Of a stretch of DNA of 49,300 nt, positions 11,715 through 49,300 are shown piece by piece. Under the pieces are notes generated by a model, which saw only the letters and a program-made list of their open reading frames with translations, was not told where the DNA came from and did not search any database. Position numbers and translations under genes: made by a program. Within the stretch, counting starts at the first letter, position 1. Each line of letters begins with the position of its first letter. The stretch comes from Desulfobacteraceae bacterium (GTDB taxonomy: Bacteria > Desulfobacterota > DSM-4660 > Desulfatiglandales > Desulfatiglandaceae): assembly GCA_030642205.1 (NCBI GenBank), contig DAOWOF010000001.1, forward strand, positions 1 through 49,300. The letters are read 5' to 3'.

Positions 11715-11788
11715 GTCTGTAACGAAATAAGAATCTCATTTCTAACCTGAATCTGAGCGCTAAATGCAATACTGATTTCGTTACAGAC
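11715..11788. other. 14-bp perfect inverted repeat GTCTGTAACGAAAT / ATTTCGTTACAGAC with a 46-nt spacer
   Basis: Arms at 11715-11728 and 11775-11788. It lies in the 138-nt gap between the ttcA-like stop and the hydratase start. Confidence 0.5.
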
Positions 11789-16406: not shown

Positions 16407-17267
16407 GGAATTTCTCCTGTAACAGTTATCGTCATTAAAGACAGATTCCTTAAAGGTAAAAAAAATACATAGTATTTAAACTATACGATTTTCAGTACGA
16501 GCTTTTTGCCGAAACAAAAAAACTTTTGAATTATTTTAATCAATAAAGGAATAATTATGGTTAAAGAAATTGTCTCTATGCCATAGTTTAACCAACTGAT
16601 TTAATTGAATAATTGGTTAATACAAAGAGAATATTTATTGAAAATTATCACAGACCTGGTTTAATATCCAGGGATTTCTTTTCCCTTTTATTTCATGTTT
16701 TAACAAACAAGGAGATTGCTTTGATTAAAATAACTTATTCCAAAATTAGATAAAAAATAAGAATGACAGCTAACAGCGATTAAGGCAGGATAAGACAACC
16801 TGGTCAAAGTATTGCTTCAGCAATGAGCCGTTTGGTATTGAATTTGCTACAACATACCAAATAACAGGGATATGAACAATTAGATCATATCGTTCAGACA
16901 CTAGTTAGGTAAAAAAATGGGGTTCAATATAAAGACATCGGTTCTAAATAATTTCAAATAATTACAGCTATCTGAGCTGCCAGAGTAAAAAATTGCAAAA
17001 GTGTTAGCTGCTTTTATGCCTAAAATGAAGGATTCCACAAATTTAATTGATTTCCTAATCATAAAATGATATCGGATTTAGGTTGGAACTTATATTTTAT
17101 ATTTGGCATCATTCTATAGCATTATAACATGTTGAATAGCTTAAACCTATTTTTATTTAATAATGCTATATATTTCATATGCACTAAAGGCTTTTCTCCT
17201 GCACCTCTTGAAATTTTTCCAGGAGTGTCCTCTTGATGCATTTATAGATTTTTTTAAGGAGGTCTTA

Positions 17268-17807
17268 ATGAAAAAAAGATTCATTTTTTTAATTTGTTGC
17301 ACTTTTTTCCTTTTATACAGTAGTTTTGCCTGGTCATGTCACATTGATCTTAGCTCTTTCCAAACGAATAGTGGTATAACATTAATACCTGGAGAGATAT
17401 ATGATGGGGAAGCTGCATTTTTCGAAGAGATAATCGGTTCCAATGAAAATGTCATTCTAAAAAATGACGCATTTAATATCCCGTCAAATGCTGGCGATCT
17501 TATCTTTCAATACATATTTATATCGGATACTGGTGGTAATGACCACTTAAGGGCTACAATCAATTCCACCAATCTAATTGATATCTATACTACAAAAACC
17601 GGATGGTATTCTATGGATTTAAGCCCCTATCAAGGGCAAATGGTTAGCTTGTCATTTGAATTATTAACACATAATTCACCTGTTGAGTCAAAGGCCATTA
17701 TCTCTAATTTAGATATTATCCCTGTCCCCAGTCCAACAAGTATGTTCTTGCTGGCAAGTGGTTTGATAGGCTTGGTTATACGTCACAGAAGGCCTCGCCT
17801 CAAATAA
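17268..17807 (+). CDS. Secreted protein with C-terminal PEP-CTERM-like sorting signal
   Basis: The ATG at 17268 follows AAGGAGG. Has a signal peptide (MKKRFIFLICCTFFLLYSSFA). The C-terminus IPVPSPTSMFLLASGLIGLVIRHRRPRLK has the motif, TM helix and basic tail of a PEP-CTERM signal. Confidence 0.7.
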   Translation: MKKRFIFLICCTFFLLYSSFAWSCHIDLSSFQTNSGITLIPGEIYDGEAAFFEEIIGSNENVILKNDAFNIPSNAGDLIFQYIFISDTGGNDHLRATINSTNLIDIYTTKTGWYSMDLSPYQGQMVSLSFELLTHNSPVESKAIISNLDIIPVPSPTSMFLLASGLIGLVIRHRRPRLK

Positions 17808-17840
17808 AGAGACATATTTCTTTTGATATTTATTTTGCAA

Positions 17841-17890
17841 TAAGGAGTTGTCCTGAAATAAGTTGAACAATATTACGGGCAACTCCTAAG
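17841..17890. repeat. REP-like hairpin element, copy b (TAAGGAGTTGTCC-TGAAATAAGTTGAACAA...GGGCAACTCCTAAG)
   Basis: ~11-bp stem AGGAGTTG(T/C)CC. The loop starts with the family-specific GAAATAAGTTG. It lies 34 nt after the PEP-CTERM gene stop. Confidence 0.65.
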
Positions 17891-39182: not shown

Positions 39183-39224
39183 TCCTTTTATATCTCGGAG
39201 CGGAGGCTTATAAAAAAAGTCACC

Positions 39225-39256
39225 TAAGGAGTTGTCCGTAAACAAGTTGGACAATT
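39225..39256. repeat. REP-like hairpin element, copy d (TAAGGAGTTGTCC-GTAAACAAGTT-GGACAATT)
   Basis: Same left arm and loop family as copies a and b. It lies between the convergent argJ and receiver-domain genes. Confidence 0.6.
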
Positions 39257-39842
39257 ATTTTCTTTTGTCCAGAAGTGCCCTGATAATTTCGGACAATTCC
39301 GGAAGTCCATATGGCTTCATAATAAAGGCAGAGATACCCATCTTCTCCGCTTCCTCTTTAGATATCACTTCGCTGAATCCAGTACATAGGACAATCAGAA
39401 TATCTGGTCTAATGGCCATGAGCTTTGTGGCTAATTGATCTCCTGTCAGATTAGGCATGGTCATATCAGTGATTACCAAATCAAAGTCTTTTGCCTGACT
39501 CCTAAACAGCTCAAGAGCCTTTAAACTATCAGTCTGAACAACAACATCATAGCCCAAATGCTCCAACATCTGTTTCCCCAGATCAACGAGACTCTCTTCA
39601 TCATCAATAAAGAGAATTCGTTCGTTGCCAATCTGTTGAAAACCTGGATTTTTCTTCACTTCTATTGTTTTCTTTTCTATACGAGGTAAATATACGTCAA
39701 ATGTGGAGTCTGCATCCTTCCGGCTTGATAGAATAATTTCTCCACCATGATTTTTTGCTATCTTTAGGCTAACAGCCAGCCCCAGCCCCGTTCCGCGGTT
39801 CTTGAATTTGGTTGTAAAATATGGGTCAAAGATTTTATCCAT
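39255..39842 (-). CDS. Remnant of a hybrid sensor kinase: last ~55 aa of HATPase_c (F and G2 boxes) plus an intact receiver domain
   Basis: MDKIFDPYFTTKFKNRGTGLGLAVSLKIAKNHGGEIILSS... is the C-terminal third of a histidine kinase ATPase domain. It is followed by REC (ILFIDDEESL...DLVITDMTMP...CTGFS...MKP). No HisKA, N or G1 box is present, and stops in the CDS frame and an AT-rich non-coding-looking sequence lie upstream. AGGAG lies 8 nt before the ATG. Confidence 0.75.
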   Translation of the reverse strand: MDKIFDPYFTTKFKNRGTGLGLAVSLKIAKNHGGEIILSSRKDADSTFDVYLPRIEKKTIEVKKNPGFQQIGNERILFIDDEESLVDLGKQMLEHLGYDVVVQTDSLKALELFRSQAKDFDLVITDMTMPNLTGDQLATKLMAIRPDILIVLCTGFSEVISKEEAEKMGISAFIMKPYGLPELSEIIRALLDKRK

Positions 39843-39944
39843 GGTGAATTCTCCTATTATAATATGGTGTTATATATAGAGGTATTCTATCATGGAACAT
39901 CCATTTAAATACATTTTAATTCATCAGGAAATCCTACAAATAAG

Positions 39945-39960
39945 CCATCAGCGCTGATGG
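39945..39960. other. Perfect 16-nt palindrome CCATCAGCGCTGATGG
   Basis: Abuts the tail of repeat copy 1 and is followed on the plus strand by GTTCTTTTTT. It could act as a terminator for queC (-) or be part of the repeat junction. CAGCGCTG recurs at 40012-40019 inside the repeat. Confidence 0.4.
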
Positions 39961-40041
39961 GTTCTTTTTTAACGATCTCTAAGTTCAAACAGTTTCAAAG
40001 TTTAATCAGACCAGCGCTGCGTGTCTGAAATAGCTGAATAG
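39959..40041 (-). repeat. ~80-nt intergenic element, copy 1 (subfamily A; orientation defined as CTATTCAG head to AAAGAACC tail)
   Basis: The reverse complement reads CTATTCAGCTATTTCAGACACGCAGCGCTGGTCTGATTAAACTTTGAAACTGTTTGAACTTAGAGATCGTTAAAAAAGAACC. Confidence 0.75.
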
Positions 40042-40071
40042 TTAAGAAAGAATAAAGGATAAAAATGGAAC

Positions 40072-40761
40072 TCACAAAAATATTGGGTCAGGAAAACCTG
40101 CTTCATGAAAGCCTTTTTTTCTCAAAAGGCAACTGTCACATTGACCGCAGGGCGTTCCATTTGGCAATGGGTCATAACAACTGTGGGTGAGGCCAAAATC
40201 AACTCCAAGATCTATACCTCTTTGGATTATCTCTGCTTTACTCATATTAATAAGCGGAGTCTGGATTTTTATTTTGGTTCGGCCTTCTACTCCTGTTTTA
40301 GTAGCAAGATTTGCCATCTTTTCAAAGGCCTCTATATATTCAGGACGGCAATCCGGATATCCGCTATAATCAACAGCATTAACTCCAATAAAGATTTCTG
40401 CTATCTCCAAAACTTCTGCCCAGGCAATGGCATAGGCAAGAAAAACTGTATTTCTTGCAGGCACATAGGTTTTAGGGATAGCAGCTTCCATTGCCTCAAG
40501 GGGCCGACCTTTTGGAACATCAATATCATCTGTAAGGGCTGATCCGCCAATCGAAGTTAAATCAGAATGAATGACCAATTGCTGTCTTGCGCCAAAGATT
40601 TGAGCAACCTTTTTGGCGGCCTTGATTTCTACCCGATGGCGTTGGCCATAATCAAAAGTCAGGCTATATATTTCATAACCTTCAGATTTAGCCATTGCCA
40701 TAACGGTTGTGGAATCAAGGCCGCCACTGGATAGTATAACAGCTTTTTTTTTGTCAGACAT
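40072..40761 (-). CDS. queC: 7-cyano-7-deazaguanine synthase QueC
   Basis: Has the PP-loop [11 protein letters not shown] and the C-terminal zinc cluster CYDP...[10 protein letters not shown]. Confidence 0.93.
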
Positions 40762-40780
40762 TTTATTGCTTTTAGGCCCC

Positions 40781-41425
40781 TTAAACTTTTGTATCCTGTC
40801 CCCAAATGATTTTATGAAGTTGAATATGGAGTTTCACTCTTAGATGGTCTTCTAAAATCCATTTGGCAAGTTTTTTATATTCAAGCTGACCAAAAACAGG
40901 AGAAAAGTGAACCTTGTTCCTTTGCAGTTCTGAAAATTGAGGTCTCTCAATGACTTCCTTTGCATACTCATAATCCTCTTTGTTTGAAAGAACAAACTTG
41001 ACCTCATCAAGAGAGGTGAGTCTTTTTAGATTTTTGAAGTTATTATGCCCAGCTTCATTGCTGGAAGGACATTTAATATCCACAACCTTGACACAACGAT
41101 CATCTACTAAATTGATGTCCTGACTGCCGTTGGTTTCAAGGAGAACCTGAAAGCCATTTTCAATAAGGCTTAAAATCAAATCAGGAGTGTTCTTTTGAAT
41201 TAAGGGTTCTCCTCCTGTCACTTCAACCAAAGGACATTTATACTGAGAAATTTCATCAATTATCCGGTTTATCTCCATTGCCTTTCCCGTATGGTAAGCA
41301 TACTGTGTATCACAGTAGGAACAGCGAAGATTACAACCTGTTAGTCTGATAAACACGCATGGCTGTCCAGCAAAGGATGATTCTCCCTGAAGGCTGTAAA
41401 ATATCTCATTAACTATTAATATCAT
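40781..41425 (-). CDS. queE: 7-carboxy-7-deazaguanine synthase QueE (radical SAM)
   Basis: N-terminus [34 protein letters not shown] carries the CxxxCxxC cluster. 214 aa. Confidence 0.9.
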
Positions 41426-41491
41426 ATGGTTGTCTTAAAAAAGGGGAACTACCCGATAAATTCCAGTAAAAAAATACTAAATTATTTGTCA

Positions 41492-41580
41492 CTATTCAGC
41501 TATTTTAAGGATGCTTATTTCAGACACACAACACTAATCTGATTCAATCTTGAAACTGTTTGAATGTATCATTCTTTAGT
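41492..41580 (+). repeat. ~80-nt intergenic element, copy 2 (subfamily A with a 16-nt insertion, degenerate tail)
   Basis: CTATTCAGCTATTTTAAGGATGCTTATTTCAGACACACAACACTAATCTGATTCAATCTTGAAACTGTTTGAATG... shares the head, the CAGACAC segment and TTGAAACTGTTTGAA with copy 1, and CAACACTAATCTGATT with copies 3 and 4. Confidence 0.7.
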
Positions 41581-41606
41581 ATATCATTACATACTTATAT
41601 TTAACA

Positions 41607-41692
41607 GGTTCTTTCTTTATGTCCCCTTAGGTGAGGTTTTCATGGTTTAATCAGATTAGTGTTGCTGTGGATATTAGGAGTTATCCGAATAG
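41607..41692 (-). repeat. ~80-nt intergenic element, copy 3 (subfamily B)
   Basis: The reverse complement CTATTCGGATAACTCCTAATATCCACAGCAACACTAATCTGATTAAACCATGAAAACCTCACCTAAGGGGACATAAAGAAAGAACC is near-identical to copy 4. Confidence 0.8.
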
Positions 41693-41704
41693 TTACACAA
41701 AATT

Positions 41705-43009
41705 TTAAAATACTTCATAGGTGTTTTGCACCCGATTTTGCAGGTAAACATAATCAAAAGAATTTTTTAAGGCTTTAGAATACCATAAAGAACCCATTTT
41801 TTGACAAGCATCACATGCCCTGATGGGAATCCGGATTGCCATGGTGTGCAAACCTAAGCTGGATCTGGATTCAATAGAAAGGAGGCCGGCGCAGTCATGG
41901 CATGAACGGATCCTTTCATTCTGTGACTCCTGAATTCCGTCTGTGTCATAGTAGATCTCCTTGGTTCGGGAAATAATTTGTCCTGATTTAAGATAGGGCA
42001 TCTTGTGATCTTTTAAAAAACGGTCTTTTAAATCGCGTACTAAATCTTCGATATATCTTGTGATAGTCTCTGGTTGTTCTTGATAGTCACGGTCGTAATT
42101 TGGTTCTTTGACAAATGAAGTATCCAGCCCTGCCATGGCCAGGATGATGCCTAAATTTACATAAGGCAGGGCATTTTCAACCGCATAGCCTCCTTCAAGT
42201 ACTGCAAGATCCGGTCTTAGACGTGAAGTTAACGCGGCATATCCACGAGCTGAAAAGTTCATATTGGTGATCGGATCATTAAAGTGATTGTCCTGACCAG
42301 CTGAATTTATTATTAACTCGGGCTTGAATTTATCAAGGATAGGCATAACAAGTTCATCAAGGACAAATAAAAATCCTTTTTCTCCTGTCCTGGGAGGCAA
42401 GGGAATATTTACTGTTGAACCCCTGGCATTAGGACCGCCATCTTCATCCGGAAAACCGCTTCCGGGATATAGGGTAGAGCCATCCTGATGAATAGAAATA
42501 AATAAGGTATCGGGATCATGCCAATAAATATCCTGGGTGCCATCCCCATGATGGCAGTCTGTATCTACAATGGCGATCCTGTTGATCCCATATTTCTCCC
42601 TGATATATTCGATCATGACAGCCTCAATATTGATATTGCAAAATCCACGGTTGCCAAGGACTACTGTCCTGGCATGATGTCCTGGAGGGCGTACCAGGGC
42701 AAAAGCACTTTCAACTTCACCTGTAAGTACGGCATCAGCTGCTACCATGCATCCACCAGCAGAAATCAGATGGCTTTTTGTTGTGACTGCTTCTTCGTTG
42801 GGGATACAAAAATGAACCCTTCTGATATCTTCAAAGGTAGCTGGACGAACCCGATATTCCTCTATACCATCGATGTCAAGGATGCCTTCTTCCATTATCT
42901 GATCCTGGGTATAAAGAAGTCTTTCCTCCCTTTCCGGATGGGTAGGACTAATAGCCCAATCAAAGGCGGGGAAAAAGACAAGGCCTGTTCGGCGTGGCGC
43001 TTTTATCAT
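41705..43009 (-). CDS. Histone deacetylase-family (HDAC/acetylpolyamine amidohydrolase-like) enzyme with C-terminal 2xCxxC extension
   Basis: Has PPGHHA and DTDCHHGDGTQ zinc/active-site motifs. The extra ~100-aa tail contains CHDC...CDAC. The ATG directly abuts the upstream stop (TAAATG). Confidence 0.88.
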   Translation of the reverse strand: MIKAPRRTGLVFFPAFDWAISPTHPEREERLLYTQDQIMEEGILDIDGIEEYRVRPATFEDIRRVHFCIPNEEAVTTKSHLISAGGCMVAADAVLTGEVESAFALVRPPGHHARTVVLGNRGFCNINIEAVMIEYIREKYGINRIAIVDTDCHHGDGTQDIYWHDPDTLFISIHQDGSTLYPGSGFPDEDGGPNARGSTVNIPLPPRTGEKGFLFVLDELVMPILDKFKPELIINSAGQDNHFNDPITNMNFSARGYAALTSRLRPDLAVLEGGYAVENALPYVNLGIILAMAGLDTSFVKEPNYDRDYQEQPETITRYIEDLVRDLKDRFLKDHKMPYLKSGQIISRTKEIYYDTDGIQESQNERIRSCHDCAGLLSIESRSSLGLHTMAIRIPIRACDACQKMGSLWYSKALKNSFDYVYLQNRVQNTYEVF

Positions 43010-44677
43010 TTAAAAATTCCTCTTCCACTCTGGGAGCAAGCCTGGATTAATACATAATTTTAAGCGTATATTTTGGCCTACCCTAGAATAATTCCTGATC
43101 ATGTTAAAATTCTGCTTTTCAACAACCGAGAATTCAATCTCCTCGGGATCGGCGCCAAATTTGAGGGCTTGCTCACGAATAGTACTACTTGCAAGCCTGA
43201 CAGCATCGTCCATATCAAAGGCAGGATCTATTGCTTTACTAAAACACGCCTCTGGAATTATTACAGTGCCGCGCCGGGTATCGGCCTGAAGAGTAATTTC
43301 AGTTGTTACCCTGGCCAGAGCTGCTCCGATGGCATTAGCCATTTCGGCATGGGCCGGAACTTCATAGGGTAAATTCAGGGATTCTCCGATATATTTGGCA
43401 AGTTGGCTGGCTGGACCACCTATGATAACCAGCCTTTCAGGCTCTATTTTTTGTTCATAAAAAACTTCTTTTATAGTATAAACCGGTCTGGAATTGATGT
43501 AATTCACAAAGGATTTGACTGATTGAGCTATTGCATTTCCCATTTCCAGCATGACATGTTCCGCTGTTGATTTTGCATCTAAATCAATGCTTGCACCAAG
43601 TATTGACATGGCTTTAATCGCAGCGGTTTTTGACCCGATATTAAGCAGATCAAGGGTAATCATGGCATCAGTGGGCGTAGGAACTTTGCCCCCCAGGGCA
43701 ACAGGCCTTCCCTTTCTAAGCGGGCCTATCTTGAATATCCCATTTTTATTAACCTTGATTTCACTGTCTCCACCCAGGCCAATTGAATGTGTCATAAGAG
43801 AGCGTATAAGGGTATGAAAATTTCCCAGCCTGATACCAAAAGGGGTACGCAAGGGTACTCCATCCACAATCACCGCCATATCAGTAGTTGTCCCTCCAAT
43901 ATCAAGCGCCAGGGTTGTCCCCTTGCACTTATCAAGGGCCAGCGCCCCCATAACACTGGCAGCTGGTCCTGACTGAGCAGTTCTGGCGGGAAATAGATTG
44001 CTTTTTGACAATTCCACTGTCCCCCCGTCCGGCTTTAAGATGAATTTTGGCGCATGGCAGCCTTTTTCGTCAAGGATTTTGGTTAAGGCAGCTGTAAATT
44101 CATTATGCATTTTAGAAAGAGCCGCATTCAGGTAAGTGGTTGTAATTCGGCGTGGAAAATTAAGGGATCCTGAGACTGAATGACCCAGGAATATATGTTG
44201 AAATTCTTTTGTTACCCATTTCTTGATTTGAATTTCATGGATGGGATTATGGACAGAAAATTTACTGACGATACCAATGGTTTTGATCCCTTTGTTTTTG
44301 ATTTGTCCGGCAGCAAAAAGGATGTCCTTCTTATTAAGAGGCCATGTTTCAATCCCTTGATGATCAAGACTGCCTTCAACCAAAGAGTAAGCTGGCCCCA
44401 CAGCAAAAAGGTGAGGGTCAATACCTGGGCCTGCAGAGATAATCATTCCAGTTTCAACCAGCTGATTTTGTATAATGGCATTGGTAGCCATGGTGGTTGA
44501 AAAGACCAGTCGTTCTATTTGAAAGGGATCGACATCGGATATAGCTTGATTTATAGCTGTTTTTAAGGTCTGAACAAGATTAGATTCTGTTGGAATTTTA
44601 TTTACAGCAAGGATTTCATTATTATCAATCAGCACAGTATCAGTGTGAGTGCCGCCTACATCAAGTCCAAGAATCAT
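43010..44677 (-). CDS. Hydantoinase A/oxoprolinase-family ATPase-like protein
   Basis: MILGLDVGGTHTDTVLI N-terminus, with a second phosphate motif LALDIGGTTTDMAV (ASKHA fold duplicated as in HyuA). 555 aa. No HyuB partner is nearby. Confidence 0.85.
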   Translation of the reverse strand: MILGLDVGGTHTDTVLIDNNEILAVNKIPTESNLVQTLKTAINQAISDVDPFQIERLVFSTTMATNAIIQNQLVETGMIISAGPGIDPHLFAVGPAYSLVEGSLDHQGIETWPLNKKDILFAAGQIKNKGIKTIGIVSKFSVHNPIHEIQIKKWVTKEFQHIFLGHSVSGSLNFPRRITTTYLNAALSKMHNEFTAALTKILDEKGCHAPKFILKPDGGTVELSKSNLFPARTAQSGPAASVMGALALDKCKGTTLALDIGGTTTDMAVIVDGVPLRTPFGIRLGNFHTLIRSLMTHSIGLGGDSEIKVNKNGIFKIGPLRKGRPVALGGKVPTPTDAMITLDLLNIGSKTAAIKAMSILGASIDLDAKSTAEHVMLEMGNAIAQSVKSFVNYINSRPVYTIKEVFYEQKIEPERLVIIGGPASQLAKYIGESLNLPYEVPAHAEMANAIGAALARVTTEITLQADTRRGTVIIPEACFSKAIDPAFDMDDAVRLASSTIREQALKFGADPEEIEFSVVEKQNFNMIRNYSRVGQNIRLKLCINPGLLPEWKRNF

Positions 44678-44726
44678 AGTGCCCTCTTTTATTAAGGCTT
44701 GCAGTAACTTATTTCGGGCTCGTCCC

Positions 44727-47700
44727 TTAGTATCTTAACATCCAAAAAATAACCATGAGCAATAAAAAAACAAGAATTATCCCCAGGACAGGATTAATAT
44801 AACCTTGTATTGAGTATAATTTATTCTGATTGTATCCATATTTATTTACAGTCGAATATTTTGTTTCTCCTGCTTTATTTTTTACTATACTTGCTTTTTT
44901 ATAGAGCGTATTGGCTGTTGCCTCATGTGGATAAACCCTGCCCTGATCTTTGAGACCCTTAGCCATTTTATCTACTATTGTGATTAGAACTGAATCCGAA
45001 TCGCTTCCTCCATTTGCATCCGCGACTGATAGCTGTACTATATAATTTCCAGGAAGATCTACAAATAAAGTGGGGTGAATACTTTCGCATTCAGCAAGAA
45101 AAGGGTTACTTCCAGGAGGAAAGGAGAGAAGACTCCATATAAAATATAATGGGTCTCCATCTGCATCTTTAGATCCATTACCATCAATTTGTACACTGTT
45201 CACCATGGTATATGTCTTATCAGGCCCCGCATCAGCCTTCGGAGGTGAATTCTGGGTGCTGATTATAACTTCAACAATATCGCTATCAATCAAGCCGTTA
45301 TTTATAACTAGCTGGACTATATAGGTTCCGGGCATATCCACTTCAAAAGAAGGATTAACCACTGAAGGATTTGATATCTTTGCCTTGCTTCCGGATGGTC
45401 GGGATTTAAAAGACCAGATATAGTTCAAGGGATCTCCAGATGTGTTTTTTGACCCGCTTCCATCTAATCGAACAAGATCTTTTACAAATACGATTTGATC
45501 CGCGCCGGCATCCGCAACAGGAGCCAAAGGGTTCTTTTCCTGGAGAGAGGTCACATTAAATACTACTTCAGATGGAATACTGTTTTGTGTCCCGTTATTG
45601 ACTATTAGTTGAAATATATATTTACCAGGGGTATCAGTCTTGAATTCTGGCCTGCTGGTATTAGTATCAAGGAGTTCCATATTTCCGTAAGCATTTGAGA
45701 TTAATGACCATTGGTAGCTCAGTTGTTTTTTATTTGAATCATAGGAACTGCTTCCATTGAGACGGACTGATTCCATGACTGATATCGTACGATCTGATCC
45801 AGCGTCTGCTATTGGCGCTATGCTACTACCTATTGCCTGAACCACGGTAATGCTTATCTTGTCAGGCTTGCTCTTTTCAATTCCATCTTCAACAATAAGC
45901 TCTATTTCATATTTCCCCTGGGTGTCCGCGATAAAATAAGGTCTGATGGTTTTAGGATTATTAATTATTGCCCTGCTGCCTGTTGGGGCGGATATTAAGC
46001 GCCAGCTATAACTAAGGGAATCATTATCCTTATCCATTGATCTATTGCCATTAAGAAGAACCCGATCGCCCAGTGAGACATTTTGATCATTTCCGGCAAT
46101 CGCAACCGGGATATTATTTAAAACATTAATAAGAACCGTATCAGGGGGACTATCCTCAATATTATCATTTACAATAAGTTGGGCGACATAAGTTCCATGT
46201 GAATCAATTCTAAAACCTGGTCTGGCAATATAAGTATTTGAGAATTCGACCCTGCTGCCTGTTGGCATTGAACTGAAAAACCAATTATATGACAAGAGAT
46301 CTCCATCAGGATCCCTGGATCTGGTTCCGTCTAAAATAATGTCATCGCCAATGCAGGCAGTAATATCATTTCCTGCATTGGCGACAGGCCTGCTATTTTC
46401 GGTGGTTACGATAGTCGTGACAGGGTCGCTATCCACAAAACCATCATTAACGATTAACTGAACCACGTAGATTCCATGAGCGTCCACTTCAAAGCTGGGC
46501 CTTAATGCCTTCTGATCCGAAAGAATTGCCCCACTGTCAAGAGGAATGGAGGTAAAAGACCAACTGTAGGTTATAAGATCTTTATCATTGTCTTTAGATA
46601 AACTTCCATCCAGAATAACTGTGTCCCAAAGAAAAGTGGATTGATCACTGCCAGCATCTGCTACAGGTTTGGTGTTTCTAGTGGTTATAACAACTGTGAC
46701 AGGATCGCTATCCACAAAACCATCGTTGACAATAAGCTGGATTAGATAGGTTCCATGGGCATCCACTTCAAGGTTTGTCATAACAGCCTCTTCTTCATCC
46801 AGGATTGCGTTGCTATCATGGGGAGACGAGATCAATGACCATTTAAAGCTAAGCAAATCTCCATCAACATCAGTCGATGAACTGCCATCCAGCATAATTT
46901 TATCCCAGAGAAAGGCTGTCTGATCATCACCAGCATTGGCGATAGGCGCACTGTTTTCAGTAGTAATGATAACAGTCTCCGGATAACTGTCTATAAGCCC
47001 ATCATTAACAATTAGCTGTGCGATATAGGTCCCTTTCACATCCATAAAAAATACAGGCTTAACACTACCTGGATCATCCAGTTGGGCATCGCTGCCATCG
47101 GGTATTGAAATTAAGGACCAGTCAAAATTTAACAAATCTCCATCAATATCGGTTGAACTACTGCCATCCAATGTAACTGTATCCAGCAAATAAAAACCTT
47201 GATCAGAGCCAGGATTTGCCACAGGTCTTGAATTTGCCGTTGTGATGACAACGGCCATAGGATCGCTGTTTTCAATCCCGTCATTGGTAATTAACATGGC
47301 GATATATTTACCATAGACATCCACAGTGAAACGAGGATTAATTGTATCTGATTCTGAAAGCAGGGCCTTACTGCCAGGAGGAATTGAGATCAGGCTCCAA
47401 TCATAGAGGAGAGGATCACCGTCAATATCGCTTGAGTTACTGCCATCAAGAGTGACCAGATCCATTAAGTAAACACTTTGATCAGGCCCTGCATCTGCCA
47501 CAGGCTTGCTGTTAGTTGTATCGATCGTAACTTTATCAGGGAGACTTGCAGAAAAAGCATCTTTTACAATAAGCTGGACCACATATTCACCATAAACATC
47601 CACATAAAAAGTGGGGTTAACAGCGCTTTGATCAGAGATTCGGGTATTACTATTGGCAGGTAATTCAATAAAAGACCAAGAATAGCTCAGGGGATCACCG

Positions 47701-47876
47701 TCAACATCGCTGGAACTGCTGCCATCAAGAGTGACTGTTTTACTTACAACAGTACTTTGATCCGCTCCTGCATTCGCTATAGGGATAGCCGCAAAAGCAT
47801 AGCAACTCCATAACATTATAAATACAAAAACCATGAATAGAAAAATCGGCTTCTTCATGGAAAGTTGTTTTACCAT
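44727..47876 (-). CDS. Large surface protein: signal peptide, ten tandem ~93-aa PKD-like (K319L-type) domains, C-terminal TM anchor
   Basis: The repeat signature A(N/D)AG.DQ...LDGS.S.D.DGD.L.Y.WS.. occurs ten times. N-terminus MKKPIFLFMVFVFIMLWSCYAFA; C-terminus INPVLGIILVFLLLMVIFWMLRY. The start is 47876 or 47858. Confidence 0.85.
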   Translation of the reverse strand: MVKQLSMKKPIFLFMVFVFIMLWSCYAFAAIPIANAGADQSTVVSKTVTLDGSSSSDVDGDPLSYSWSFIELPANSNTRISDQSAVNPTFYVDVYGEYVVQLIVKDAFSASLPDKVTIDTTNSKPVADAGPDQSVYLMDLVTLDGSNSSDIDGDPLLYDWSLISIPPGSKALLSESDTINPRFTVDVYGKYIAMLITNDGIENSDPMAVVITTANSRPVANPGSDQGFYLLDTVTLDGSSSTDIDGDLLNFDWSLISIPDGSDAQLDDPGSVKPVFFMDVKGTYIAQLIVNDGLIDSYPETVIITTENSAPIANAGDDQTAFLWDKIMLDGSSSTDVDGDLLSFKWSLISSPHDSNAILDEEEAVMTNLEVDAHGTYLIQLIVNDGFVDSDPVTVVITTRNTKPVADAGSDQSTFLWDTVILDGSLSKDNDKDLITYSWSFTSIPLDSGAILSDQKALRPSFEVDAHGIYVVQLIVNDGFVDSDPVTTIVTTENSRPVANAGNDITACIGDDIILDGTRSRDPDGDLLSYNWFFSSMPTGSRVEFSNTYIARPGFRIDSHGTYVAQLIVNDNIEDSPPDTVLINVLNNIPVAIAGNDQNVSLGDRVLLNGNRSMDKDNDSLSYSWRLISAPTGSRAIINNPKTIRPYFIADTQGKYEIELIVEDGIEKSKPDKISITVVQAIGSSIAPIADAGSDRTISVMESVRLNGSSSYDSNKKQLSYQWSLISNAYGNMELLDTNTSRPEFKTDTPGKYIFQLIVNNGTQNSIPSEVVFNVTSLQEKNPLAPVADAGADQIVFVKDLVRLDGSGSKNTSGDPLNYIWSFKSRPSGSKAKISNPSVVNPSFEVDMPGTYIVQLVINNGLIDSDIVEVIISTQNSPPKADAGPDKTYTMVNSVQIDGNGSKDADGDPLYFIWSLLSFPPGSNPFLAECESIHPTLFVDLPGNYIVQLSVADANGGSDSDSVLITIVDKMAKGLKDQGRVYPHEATANTLYKKASIVKNKAGETKYSTVNKYGYNQNKLYSIQGYINPVLGIILVFLLLMVIFWMLRY

Positions 47877-48142
47877 AATTCATTTTCCATCGATGAATCT
47901 TTATTAGGGAAAAAATGATTTATTTTTCCTGGTCTTATAACTGATCAATAAATTTATCGAGTTAAGATCAATTTTTTAGAGCAGATACAACAGGGAAAAA
48001 CTAAACAATGGTTTGGCACCATATATAGTGAGATTAATAACGGGGAGCTTAAACATACAAGCTTTTTAAAACCATATTAATTCAAGCTATTGATACAGAT
48101 AGCAAAATTTTTAAGAACAAATCAAGTAAAAAATTATAGTAG

Positions 48143-48222
48143 CTATTCAGCTAAATATCCACCTCAACACTAATCTGATTAAACCATGAAAAACTCACCT
48201 AAGATGTCGTAAAGAAAGAACC
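48143..48222 (+). repeat. ~80-nt intergenic element, copy 4 (subfamily B)
   Basis: CTATTCAGCTAAATATCCACCTCAACACTAATCTGATTAAACCATGAAAAACTCACCTAAGATGTCGTAAAGAAAGAACC. Confidence 0.8.
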
Positions 48223-48423
48223 CGCTAAAAAGAAAAAAATTGAAGGTATTATTGACAAAGCCAATGAAAAAAAGTGACTAAGTCTACGGTTGAAAAATAA
48301 TCTCGGGAATCGATAGTTGTTGATATTCCAATTTGCACAGTGGATATAAATTTGATATGCATTTATAAAATGCTCAGGGTAAAAACCCGCCTTTAAGAAT
48401 CCACAATAAGAAAGGAGATAATA

Positions 48424-49300
48424 ATGGATAAGACTTCCGATGGAAACGGTTTATCCCAAATCAGTATGTCAAATACAAAAAAAGAAATGCTCGATGTCTA
48501 TGAAAAACTTAAGAGACAAATAGAAACAAAGAACAAAGAACTTATTAATGCGGAAAAATCGAAAAAAGAGATTGAAAAGAAAGTTGCGCTGGTAACTGCG
48601 GAAACTCAGGCTTCCCAGGATCCAGTCTACAGGATCCATGACCTCCGTTCTTCATTAAATAAAGAGCTGTCTTCTCTTGCCGAAAAGTTTGAAGAAGAAT
48701 TGGAGACGTATCGTAAAGTACAATCTGCTGTTCAGGAGAAGCAGGAAGAACTCAAAAGTATCTATGATATTGAAGCCGGCGCTTCCGATCTCGAAGCCTT
48801 GATTCAAGCCCAGCATGTAAAAAAAGAGGAATTTGATAGTGAGATAAATCTCCAACAAAGTGAATTTGATCAGGAAATGGCTGAATCGCGGGAAAGCTGG
48901 GACCAGGAAAAAGCAAAAATGACGACACAAGTCAAGGAAGAAAAAGAACAGCTCAAAAAGCAAAAAGAAAGGGAAGAAGCTGATTATGAATACAATCTGA
49001 ACCGCGAGCGTGAACAGCGAAGAAACAAATTGGAAGACGAGCTTCAGGCATTGCAAAAAGAAATAAATCAAAAAAAGGAGGCCTTTGAACAGGAGATAAG
49101 TTCCAGGGAGGTGGGATTAAAACGCAAGGAAATCGAAGCCGCCCAAAAAGAACAGGAATTTGATGAACTGAGTAAAGAGGTGGAATCTTTTCCATCAAGA
49201 CTTGAAGCCAAGGTTAAAGCGGTGGTCAATGAAACCACGGCACGACTTACTGCGGATTTTGGAAAAAACGAAACGCTTCTCAAAGCGAATTTTGGAGGCG
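48424..49300 (+). CDS. Coiled-coil K/E-rich protein, 3'-truncated by the window edge (not in the ORF track)
   Basis: ATG at 48424 with AAGGAG 7 nt upstream. I translated 292 codons to the window end without a stop (MDKTSDGNGLSQISMSNTKKEMLDVYEKLKRQIETKNKELINAEKSKKEIEKK...). The minus-strand track ORFs here are its F/L-rich antisense. Confidence 0.7.
   Translation, partial: MDKTSDGNGLSQISMSNTKKEMLDVYEKLKRQIETKNKELINAEKSKKEIEKKVALVTAETQASQDPVYRIHDLRSSLNKELSSLAEKFEEELETYRKVQSAVQEKQEELKSIYDIEAGASDLEALIQAQHVKKEEFDSEINLQQSEFDQEMAESRESWDQEKAKMTTQVKEEKEQLKKQKEREEADYEYNLNREREQRRNKLEDELQALQKEINQKKEAFEQEISSREVGLKRKEIEAAQKEQEFDELSKEVESFPSRLEAKVKAVVNETTARLTADFGKNETLLKANFGG

Follow-up and report, generated by a model that had tools for sequence, protein, structure and literature searches.

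The 49.3-kb stretch of Desulfobacteraceae DNA analyzed here (the window) carries four copies of a short noncoding repeat, which enclose two adjacent gene blocks as two inverted pairs. The most probable reading is that the repeat marks boundaries left by past rearrangements or mobile elements and is not an RNA gene. The explanation favored here, at a probability of roughly 0.4, is that the copies are relic inverted-repeat ends of a nonautonomous cassette-like element or of inversion events, the two routes being counted jointly. The repeat is a modest curiosity: if the relic-end explanation is true, it preserves a record of the events that put two native operons next to each other and disrupted a kinase gene in a lineage of uncultured Thermodesulfobacteriota, and it also flags a cause of metagenome assembly fragmentation in that lineage. 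Its importance would grow only with proof that chromosomal gene modules are actively exchanged at its tails.

Four copies and their borders

The four copies reported in a preliminary description of the window were recovered at their places by a search for inverted repeats, by a scan for the common core, and by a hidden Markov model (HMM). Copy 1 (positions 39959 to 40041, minus strand) and copy 2 (41492 to 41580, plus strand) make up subfamily A, copy 2 being a mosaic whose tail is degenerate and which contains an insertion of 15 nt. Copy 3 (41595 to 41692, minus strand) and copy 4 (48143 to 48234, plus strand) make up subfamily B. The copies 3 and 4 correspond to an inverted repeat of 81 nt (I1; 41595 to 41675 against 48154 to 48234, 86%), copies 1 and 2 to one of 49 nt (I2; 39984 to 40032 against 41516 to 41564, 84%), and copies 2 and 3 to one of 27 nt (I12; 89%). 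These are the top-ranked inverted repeats of the window, and I1 and I2 are its two longest. The degenerate 24-nt core CNCTRRTCTGATTNAAYYNTGAAA, common to all copies, occurs four times against 0.06 expected occurrences, and the heads, described earlier as CTATTC(A/G)G, are the only places in the window where CTATTCRGNTA matches exactly. A search with an HMM of the four copies returns them at E values from 6e-26 to 9e-21, with the next match at 2.2. Neither the core scan nor the HMM revealed a further copy in the remaining 41 kb of the window, all four copies lying inside 8.3 kb; scatter of the kind known from repetitive extragenic palindromic (REP) repeats, which had been named as the outcome that would speak for an ordinary dispersed repeat, is therefore not seen within these 49.3 kb.

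Along the window, the copies alternate in orientation (- + - +), their heads pointing toward the enclosed genes, so that the inward-facing inverted pairs first described around two gene blocks are borne out. The layout reads tail-head, queC-queE, head-tail, followed by tail-head, HDAC-hydantoinase-PKD, head-tail. The first block (40072 to 41425, minus strand), between copies 1 and 2, consists of queC (40072 to 40761) and a queE-like radical SAM gene (40781 to 41425); the second (41705 to 47876, minus strand), between copies 3 and 4, consists of genes for an HDAC (41705 to 43009), a hydantoinase (43010 to 44677), and a protein with 10 PKD domains (44727 to 47876). Divergence among the copies ranges from 14 to 35% over a unit of about 100 nt, and the closest relative of each copy is its partner around the same gene block (copy 3 with copy 4, copy 1 with copy 2), a pattern that would arise if the partners were the two ends of a single unit or products of one inversion event. 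Copies 2 and 3 form a tail-to-tail doublet of about 200 nt, their tails separated by a spacer at 41581 to 41594.

The unit length, first put at about 80 nt, is corrected to about 95 to 115 nt, because the similarity of copies 3 and 4 extends about 12 nt beyond AAAGAACC. A possible head extension of about 20 nt (AGTAAAAAA..ATTAT..) in copies 2 and 4 and in copy 3 of a sister species is not significant by shuffling. Three blocks are conserved across both subfamilies (CTATTCRG; TCTGATTNAA..TGAAA; AAAGAACC) and the segments between them are variable; matches between the subfamilies are confined to the core, which includes TAATCTGATTA. The TAATC-N-GATTA palindrome that had been ascribed to the element as a whole is perfect, as TAATC-T-GATTA, in copies 3 and 4 and imperfect in copies 1 and 2. 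Similarly, the sharing of CTATTCAGCTATTTCAGACAC by copies 1 and 2 appears only when the 15-nt insertion of copy 2 is skipped and is not a contiguous match.

Similarity between copies ends at the head and at the tail; beyond these borders, the flanks resemble one another only as much as shuffled sequences do, which marks the repeat as a discrete unit. A search for homology beyond it (a degenerate partner to the right of copy 4 or to the left of copy 1, or common head flanks) gave scores no higher than those of shuffles. On direct inspection of the sequence, all reading frames are closed inside the core, and no internal inverted arms (with a spacer of 0 to 9 nt) are conserved within a single unit, which accordingly has no terminal inverted repeat. 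The original characterization of the element as one with no open reading frame (ORF), no terminal inverted repeat of its own, and no recognized RNA or insertion sequence (IS) class holds.

Several smaller motifs were considered and dropped. A small ORF, ATG-GTT-TAA, accompanied by an AGGTGAG motif resembling a Shine-Dalgarno sequence, is found on the reverse strand in copies 3 and 4 but not in copies 1 and 2 and was therefore set aside. Likenesses to a Hin/Gin hix half site (CATGAAAACC), to a DnaA box (ATATCCACA), and to parS half sites (in TGAAACTGTTTGA) occur in some copies only or amount to half a site; these were dropped as presumably due to chance.

Junctions, distribution, and origin of the copies

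The element was detected only in this Thermodesulfobacteriota species and in its sister species. Homologous regions were retrieved as contigs or loci (L numbers) and homologous proteins (P numbers), the same-species contigs stemming from three ENA samples. Contig L018, 98.85% identical to the window over 9335 nt with no gaps, carries copies 2 to 4 and most of copy 1, with 0 or 1 difference per copy, and copy 1 is the same in L016 and L017; over the region as a whole, two strains are just 0.1 to 1.2% apart. In the sister species (L007, 93% nucleotide identity), the head of copy 3 also follows the HDAC gene, offset by 30 extra nt. These 30 nt lie between the HDAC stop codon and the head (L007 3016 to 3077 against window 41660 to 41707), and, as far as the aligned sequences tell, the window version of the junction looks like a deletion between two TAAAA..ATT microhomologies.

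In more distant relatives, the neighborhoods differ. An HMM search of all retrieved loci found no copy in relatives at 75 to 85% protein identity. For example, a relative with a 79% identical HDAC (L009) has unrelated sequence after the HDAC gene and no element, and another at 75% (L024) has the order pyrF-hydantoinase-HDAC-UDP-glucose dehydrogenase (ugd), with no que genes and no PKD gene. To the right of copy 4, relatives of the gene for a KE-rich coiled-coil protein, which starts at 48424 and has no Pfam match, retain the coding sequence at 80 to 85% identity and up to 106 nt upstream, next to other neighbors; their similarity is lost left of 48404 or 48318. The 85% relative keeps the stretch at 48318 to 48423 (plus strand) and has no similarity further left, which places a synteny break just right of copy 4. 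Because the relatives without the element have different neighbors, the junctions that bear copies are, on the evidence of these comparisons, lineage-specific; only the hydantoinase-HDAC pair is ancestral. The synteny comparison proposed earlier thus gives a divided answer: the junctions are peculiar to the lineage, but that pair is conserved elsewhere without the element.

The left edge of the repeat array coincides with a damaged gene. The tail of copy 1 adjoins a terminator-like hairpin, namely a perfect 16-nt palindrome (CCATCAGCGCTGATGG, 39945 to 39960) with T-runs on both strands that resembles a bidirectional terminator, and a 5'-truncated hybrid sensor kinase gene (39255 to 39842, minus strand). 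The truncation, noted in the preliminary description, was confirmed with Pfam: positions 55 to 109 of the HATPase_c profile, that is, the last half of the domain, are kept together with the receiver, and the sensor, HisKA, and first ATPase half are gone. The ORF opens at an IFDPYFTTK motif and is preceded by in-frame stops (39843 to 39958). The fragment is identical in L015, L016, and L017, which belong to three other assemblies, and is therefore a fixed remnant or a reused receiver protein. The truncated kinase is a relic of rearrangement next to the tail of copy 1.

Assembly breaks cluster at the copies as well. Among the 12 ends of six contigs retrieved from this species and its sister, 5 lie in a copy or within 15 nt of one. 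L007 ends inside the head of copy 3; L008 ends 14 nt beyond the tail of copy 3, at 41593 within the spacer; and L015 ends at 40000 and L018 begins at 39966, both inside copy 1, with a mutual overlap of 35 nt. L017 tracks the window to 41579 and diverges exactly at the tail of copy 2 (41579/41580), where its first 52 nt (CTGTTGCGGATGGTCGCGTGATTAAACAGGCTTAATTTCGGTGAAACTTCAG, beginning CTGTTGCGGATGGTCGCGTGATTAAACAGG) take the place of the spacer and copy 3. This 52-nt sequence has no match elsewhere in the window or in the retrieved loci; in the direction of queE, it reads as the C terminus of a different gene (...LLRMVA, stop). It also holds GATTAAAC and TGAAACT, both of which match the element core over a short stretch. 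Among the copies of the window, exact identity extends over 28 nt at most, too short a stretch to cause breaks in assemblies with larger k-mers; this suggests that additional copies or alternative junctions are present in the populations.

The alternative junction at an exact site boundary, the contig breaks at the sites, and the strict alternation of sites bounding two adjacent modules also speak for site-specific recombination, in which the copies would be sites that shuffle chromosomal gene modules in the manner of dif modules. This is quite improbable. The copies have no recombinase core (inverted arms around a 6- to 8-nt spacer), the window has no dif-like sequence within 8 substitutions of Escherichia coli dif, and no recombinase gene lies nearby; furthermore, these sites span about 100 nt and have diverged by 14 to 35%, whereas functional sites are short and conserved. 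The alternating orientation is a weak sign, arising by chance in 1 of 8 cases with four sites. Slimmer still is the chance, raised by analogy, that the copies are recognition sites of an undescribed Thermodesulfobacteriota system that would bound and reshuffle chromosomal modules at the tails by means of an unknown recombinase, as a chromosomal counterpart of plasmid dif modules; every native operon would then possess a pair of inward-facing sites of about 100 bp, and exchange or inversion of modules would take place at the tail ends, as the L017 junction suggests.

Taken together, the discrete, sharp-bordered unit, the sister copies around each block, the restriction to one lineage, the synteny breaks, the truncated gene, and the change of junction at a tail point to a DNA-level origin rather than to a conserved RNA or operator. 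In the relic-end explanation, the repeat would act, or would once have acted, at the DNA level as a lineage-restricted noncoding unit, with one subfamily pair for each gene block. By one route, the inverted ends of a nonautonomous element would bound passenger genes without a transposase, much as in a mobile insertion cassette. By the other, intramolecular replicative transposition would invert a segment and leave a duplicated inverted copy at each of its ends. Such events could have made two native operons neighbors, truncated the kinase gene, and given rise to the lineage-specific junctions; we infer mobility or recombination as the cause of the copies. Two by-products might be expected: any RNA reading through from HDAC to queE would contain copies 3 and 2 as a long hairpin, and the heads of copies 2 and 4, with their flanks, would look like promoters for the downstream operons. 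What stands of the earlier suggestion that the copies are recombination or mobilization sites for gene cassettes is the boundary role, to which the synteny breaks, the L017 junction, and the sister partners all speak; the cassette part is weakened by the native genes and by a hydantoinase-HDAC pair that is found elsewhere without the element.

A number of observations weigh against the relic-end explanation. The L017 junction comprises only 52 nt and could be an assembly chimera, and the order and orientation of all four copies are identical in the window and L018, with L016 and L017 agreeing over the part that they cover. No target-site duplication was found around the units, and terminal inverted repeats, the other hallmark of a miniature inverted-repeat transposable element (MITE), are missing from the single unit, only the doublet of copies 2 and 3 being palindromic. 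No transposase, integrase, invertase, or recombinase is encoded in the window or in the 1 kb past it. Scanning for the core CNCTRRTCTGATTNAAYYNTGAAA yielded 6, 5, and 0 matches in GTDB representative genomes, JGI metagenomes, and viral contigs, respectively; each stood alone, without the remainder of the element, and was rejected as a chance match, leaving no other copy in these collections, and a blastn search with copy 4 found no match in plasmids and phages. Thus, no autonomous partner is known. The HDAC homologs, by which the organism is placed in Thermodesulfobacteriota (with Desulfatiglandales- or Desulfobacteraceae-like names), have identities of 100% (P0001, on a same-species contig), then 94%, and next at most 79%, and QueC is 92% identical in the sister species (P0218, on a JGI contig) and about 75% identical in other Desulfobacterales and Syntrophaceae. 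The two proteins share one vertical-looking profile (about 92 to 94% in the sister species, about 75% in other Thermodesulfobacteriota), and because their identities drop alike, neither block looks like foreign cargo; judged by these identities, the enclosed genes are native and of the housekeeping type. Exact-protein look-ups for the HDAC, QueE, QueC, and PKD proteins returned no record.

One candidate target-site duplication of the doublet, a 6- to 7-nt direct repeat (AAAATAC), was rejected as native HDAC 3' sequence on the evidence of the sister contig, in which the TAAAATT after the HDAC stop codon is native. Excising the doublet of copies 2 and 3 would, moreover, destroy the normal HDAC stop and add a C-terminal extension of more than 20 amino acids that is seen in no homolog.

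Some of the same facts would fit neutral relics of local inverted duplications that arose during rearrangement, by fold-back or template-switch repair at inversion breakpoints, with no mobile element and no function. The copies are restricted to this locus of the window, synteny breaks and a neighboring truncated gene mark their positions, partner copies are sisters, and neither a transposase nor a target-site duplication was found. Nevertheless, four identically bordered copies in two subfamilies with three common blocks are hard to obtain from independent events; the contig ends, like the L017 junction, give a hint of additional copies or of variation still under way; and the element is still recognizable in the sister species. 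Breakpoint duplication is therefore considered unlikely, though less so than the other alternatives weighed here.

RNA-level and regulatory readings and the gene context

The identities of the surrounding genes given earlier were confirmed with Pfam, which assigns SecA, ArgJ, the kinase fragment, QueC, the QueE-like radical SAM protein, the HDAC-family deacetylase, the hydantoinase/oxoprolinase-like protein, and the 10-PKD protein. Relative to these genes, copies 1 and 3 are in sense orientation, with their heads 30 nt past the queC stop and 12 nt past the HDAC stop, respectively. The head of copy 2 lies 66 nt upstream of the queE start, antisense to the gene; that of copy 4 lies 266 nt upstream of the PKD gene start, in the opposite orientation, with its tail about 190 nt upstream of the KE-rich gene.

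The element has no detectable RNA structure of its own. Rfam, applied to the whole window at the gathering score, places no family at the element, and a permissive rescan of 39850 to 41750 (copies 1 to 3, not copy 4) with E values up to 10 returned nothing relevant, with no preQ1 riboswitch upstream of queE. Single copies, on either strand, fold no better than shuffles (z scores from -0.32 to +1.48). The check for a consensus fold and covariation that the preliminary description had called for came back empty on the four copies: the consensus fold has an energy of -0.04 kcal/mol, with 0 compensatory pairs. With no ORF, no Rfam match, no self-structure, and no consensus fold, a structured RNA is disfavored as the identity of the element. 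The same applies to the earlier idea of a regulatory RNA or leader, for which, besides the lack of structure and of an Rfam match, copy 4 falls outside the conserved promoter region of its downstream gene; relatives keep that region without having copy 4.

One RNA does fold far better than shuffles, the 279-nt HDAC-queE intergenic RNA (copy 3, spacer, and copy 2), which forms a long hairpin (-61.8 kcal/mol; z score, -3.6). The hairpin arises because copies 3 and 2 are inverted neighbors, and since any inverted DNA repeat yields a hairpin, this z score is trivial and not independent evidence. It could nonetheless be enlisted for an RNA-level element, in which copies 1 and 3 would serve as 3' untranslated region (3' UTR) or intercistronic sequences and copies 2 and 4 as antisense partners, their long-range pairing creating RNase III sites or stabilizing hairpins, or in which 3' UTR-derived small RNAs would carry an unstructured seed. 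The placement of copies 1 and 3 directly after stop codons, in sense orientation, and that of copy 1 between the queC stop and the terminator-like hairpin agree with such a role. However, single copies are unstructured, without consensus fold, covariation, or Rfam match; no terminator accompanies copy 2, 3, or 4; and copies 2 and 4, if the promoter-like sites at their heads are real, lie upstream of the transcription starts and hence outside the mRNAs. An RNA-level role is, like site-specific recombination, a long shot.

Those putative promoters are sigma-70-like consensus matches, TTAAAA-16-AATAAT across the head of copy 2 and its flank toward queE (41481 to 41508, minus strand) and TGGATA-17-TATAAT across the head of copy 4 and its flank toward the PKD operon (48133 to 48161, minus strand). 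They would suit a cis-regulatory DNA module, in which a dimeric protein bound to TAATC-T-GATTA (TGAAAC-T-GTTTGA in subfamily A) would supply or gate the promoters of the queEC and PKD-hydantoinase-HDAC operons. Promoter-like hexamers directed toward the operons across the heads of copies 2 and 4, three blocks conserved across subfamilies between variable segments, and the difference of 0 to 1 nt per copy between two strains all conform to this reading. Yet two of the four copies follow genes, into whose 3' ends they point, and the palindrome is perfect in only two of the four. Sigma-70-like matches in the region number 27 against 28.5 in shuffles, and their spacing differs among the copies. 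Partner conservation over 80 to 100 nt looks like common descent, not like selection on an 11-nt site, and the strain-level conservation says little because the whole region is nearly as uniform. A cis-regulatory role is accordingly improbable, somewhat less so than an RNA-level one.

The other genes of the window belong to the core chromosome, including those for ParAB, Maf, TatD, two Lon proteases, ClpXP, trigger factor, and three tRNAs. The PKD gene (44727 to 47876, minus strand) is built of ten tandem 279-nt (93-amino-acid) PKD/K319L-like repeats with 60 to 76% nucleotide identity, which form a protein of 1049 amino acids; its counterpart in the L018 strain has 1043 amino acids and a divergence of 1.2%. 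The KE-rich protein (48424 to 49300, plus strand; L018 8459 to 9541) has 360 amino acids, is conserved and widespread in Thermodesulfobacteriota, and contains no Pfam domain. Its gene differs by 5.4% between two strains that otherwise differ by 0.1 to 1.2%, which suggests allelic replacement or fast evolution. Downstream of it, past the right end of the window, two small ORFs are visible in the raw sequence of L018 (9880 to 10252), which we take to resemble a DUF4160/DUF2442-type pair. A separate 40-nt hairpin repeat family, D7 (TAAGGAsTTGTCC...GGACAA, 78 to 85%), occurs at 1903 to 1942, 17831 to 17870, and 39215 to 39254, each copy directly 3' of a gene (parB, the ORF at 17163 to 17807, and argJ/kinase fragment); this family of the genome resembles REP elements or terminators. 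Finally, a 27-nt inverted repeat (I15, 11715 to 11788; 85% complementary, with a 20-nt loop) lies between genes for an enoyl-CoA hydratase and a PP-loop ATPase.

Comparison with known systems

The tested traits of MITEs, REP elements and REPINs, Tn3 ends, dif sites, invertons, and structured RNAs are not those of the element, which is therefore not filed among them: it is an unclassified, new family within a well-known kind, the short bacterial intergenic inverted repeats. The traits of invertons and shufflons are lacking in that no recombinase is adjacent and a single orientation is seen in the window, L018, L016, and L017; those of riboswitches and other structured RNAs, preQ1 included, are absent as well. 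A likeness to Tn3 ends (GAAAA(A)CTCAC.TAAG, with GGTCTGA in copy 1), judged against the 38-bp end in the form GGGG...GAAAA...ACGYTAAG, was rejected as not significant (P of 0.04 to 0.17 per copy before multiple-test correction), and there is no GGGG terminus.

REP units are imperfect palindromes of 20 to 40 nt, present genome-wide in high copy number and tied to RAYT transposases. Like these and the BIME and REPIN arrangements, the present repeats are intergenic and able to form inverted doublets after genes. In contrast to them, the unit is 95 to 115 nt long and nonpalindromic, and its four local copies all fall within a single 8-kb part of the window.

The Correia elements of Neisseria and the enterobacterial repetitive intergenic consensus (ERIC) sequences are MITEs with cotranscribed hairpins and outward promoters. 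The doublet of copies 2 and 3 resembles them in being palindromic, about 200 bp long, and intergenic between same-strand genes, in that it would fold as an RNA hairpin, and in the promoter-like sequences at its outer ends. Here, however, the repeated entity is a single 95-nt unit without a terminal inverted repeat, no target-site duplication was found, and the copies number four in the window as opposed to tens to hundreds.

In intramolecular replicative transposition of the IS26, Tn3, or Mu type, inversion leaves a segment between inverted sister copies. The arrangement in the window is similar in that inverted sister copies flank a segment, with rearranged gene order and a truncated gene at the edges. 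The copies are, on the other hand, short noncoding units and not complete elements, and the inverted target duplications to be expected cannot be recognized.

The pdif modules of Acinetobacter plasmids are bounded by 28-bp sites composed of an XerC half (11), a spacer (6), and an XerD half (11) (PMC6449649, PMC13141974). There is no XerC/XerD core in the present copies, whose setting is chromosomal and which have diverged from one another. What the two systems have in common is that neighboring gene modules are bounded by strictly alternating sites and that modules can occur beside different neighbors.

Mobile insertion cassettes, finally, consist of passenger genes between IS- or Tn3-type inverted repeats, without a transposase (PMC3913671, PMC4337579). 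The window departs from them in that no target-site duplication was found, no matching autonomous element turned up in the collections scanned, and the passengers are native housekeeping-type genes; furthermore, the repeats are long (about 95 to 115 nt), their inner border is sharply conserved, and two units abut tail to tail. Conversely, inverted repeats bracketing passenger genes with no internal transposase are exactly what is found here, and, as in these cassettes, each transposase-free block is enclosed by two related inverted repeats that are closest to each other.

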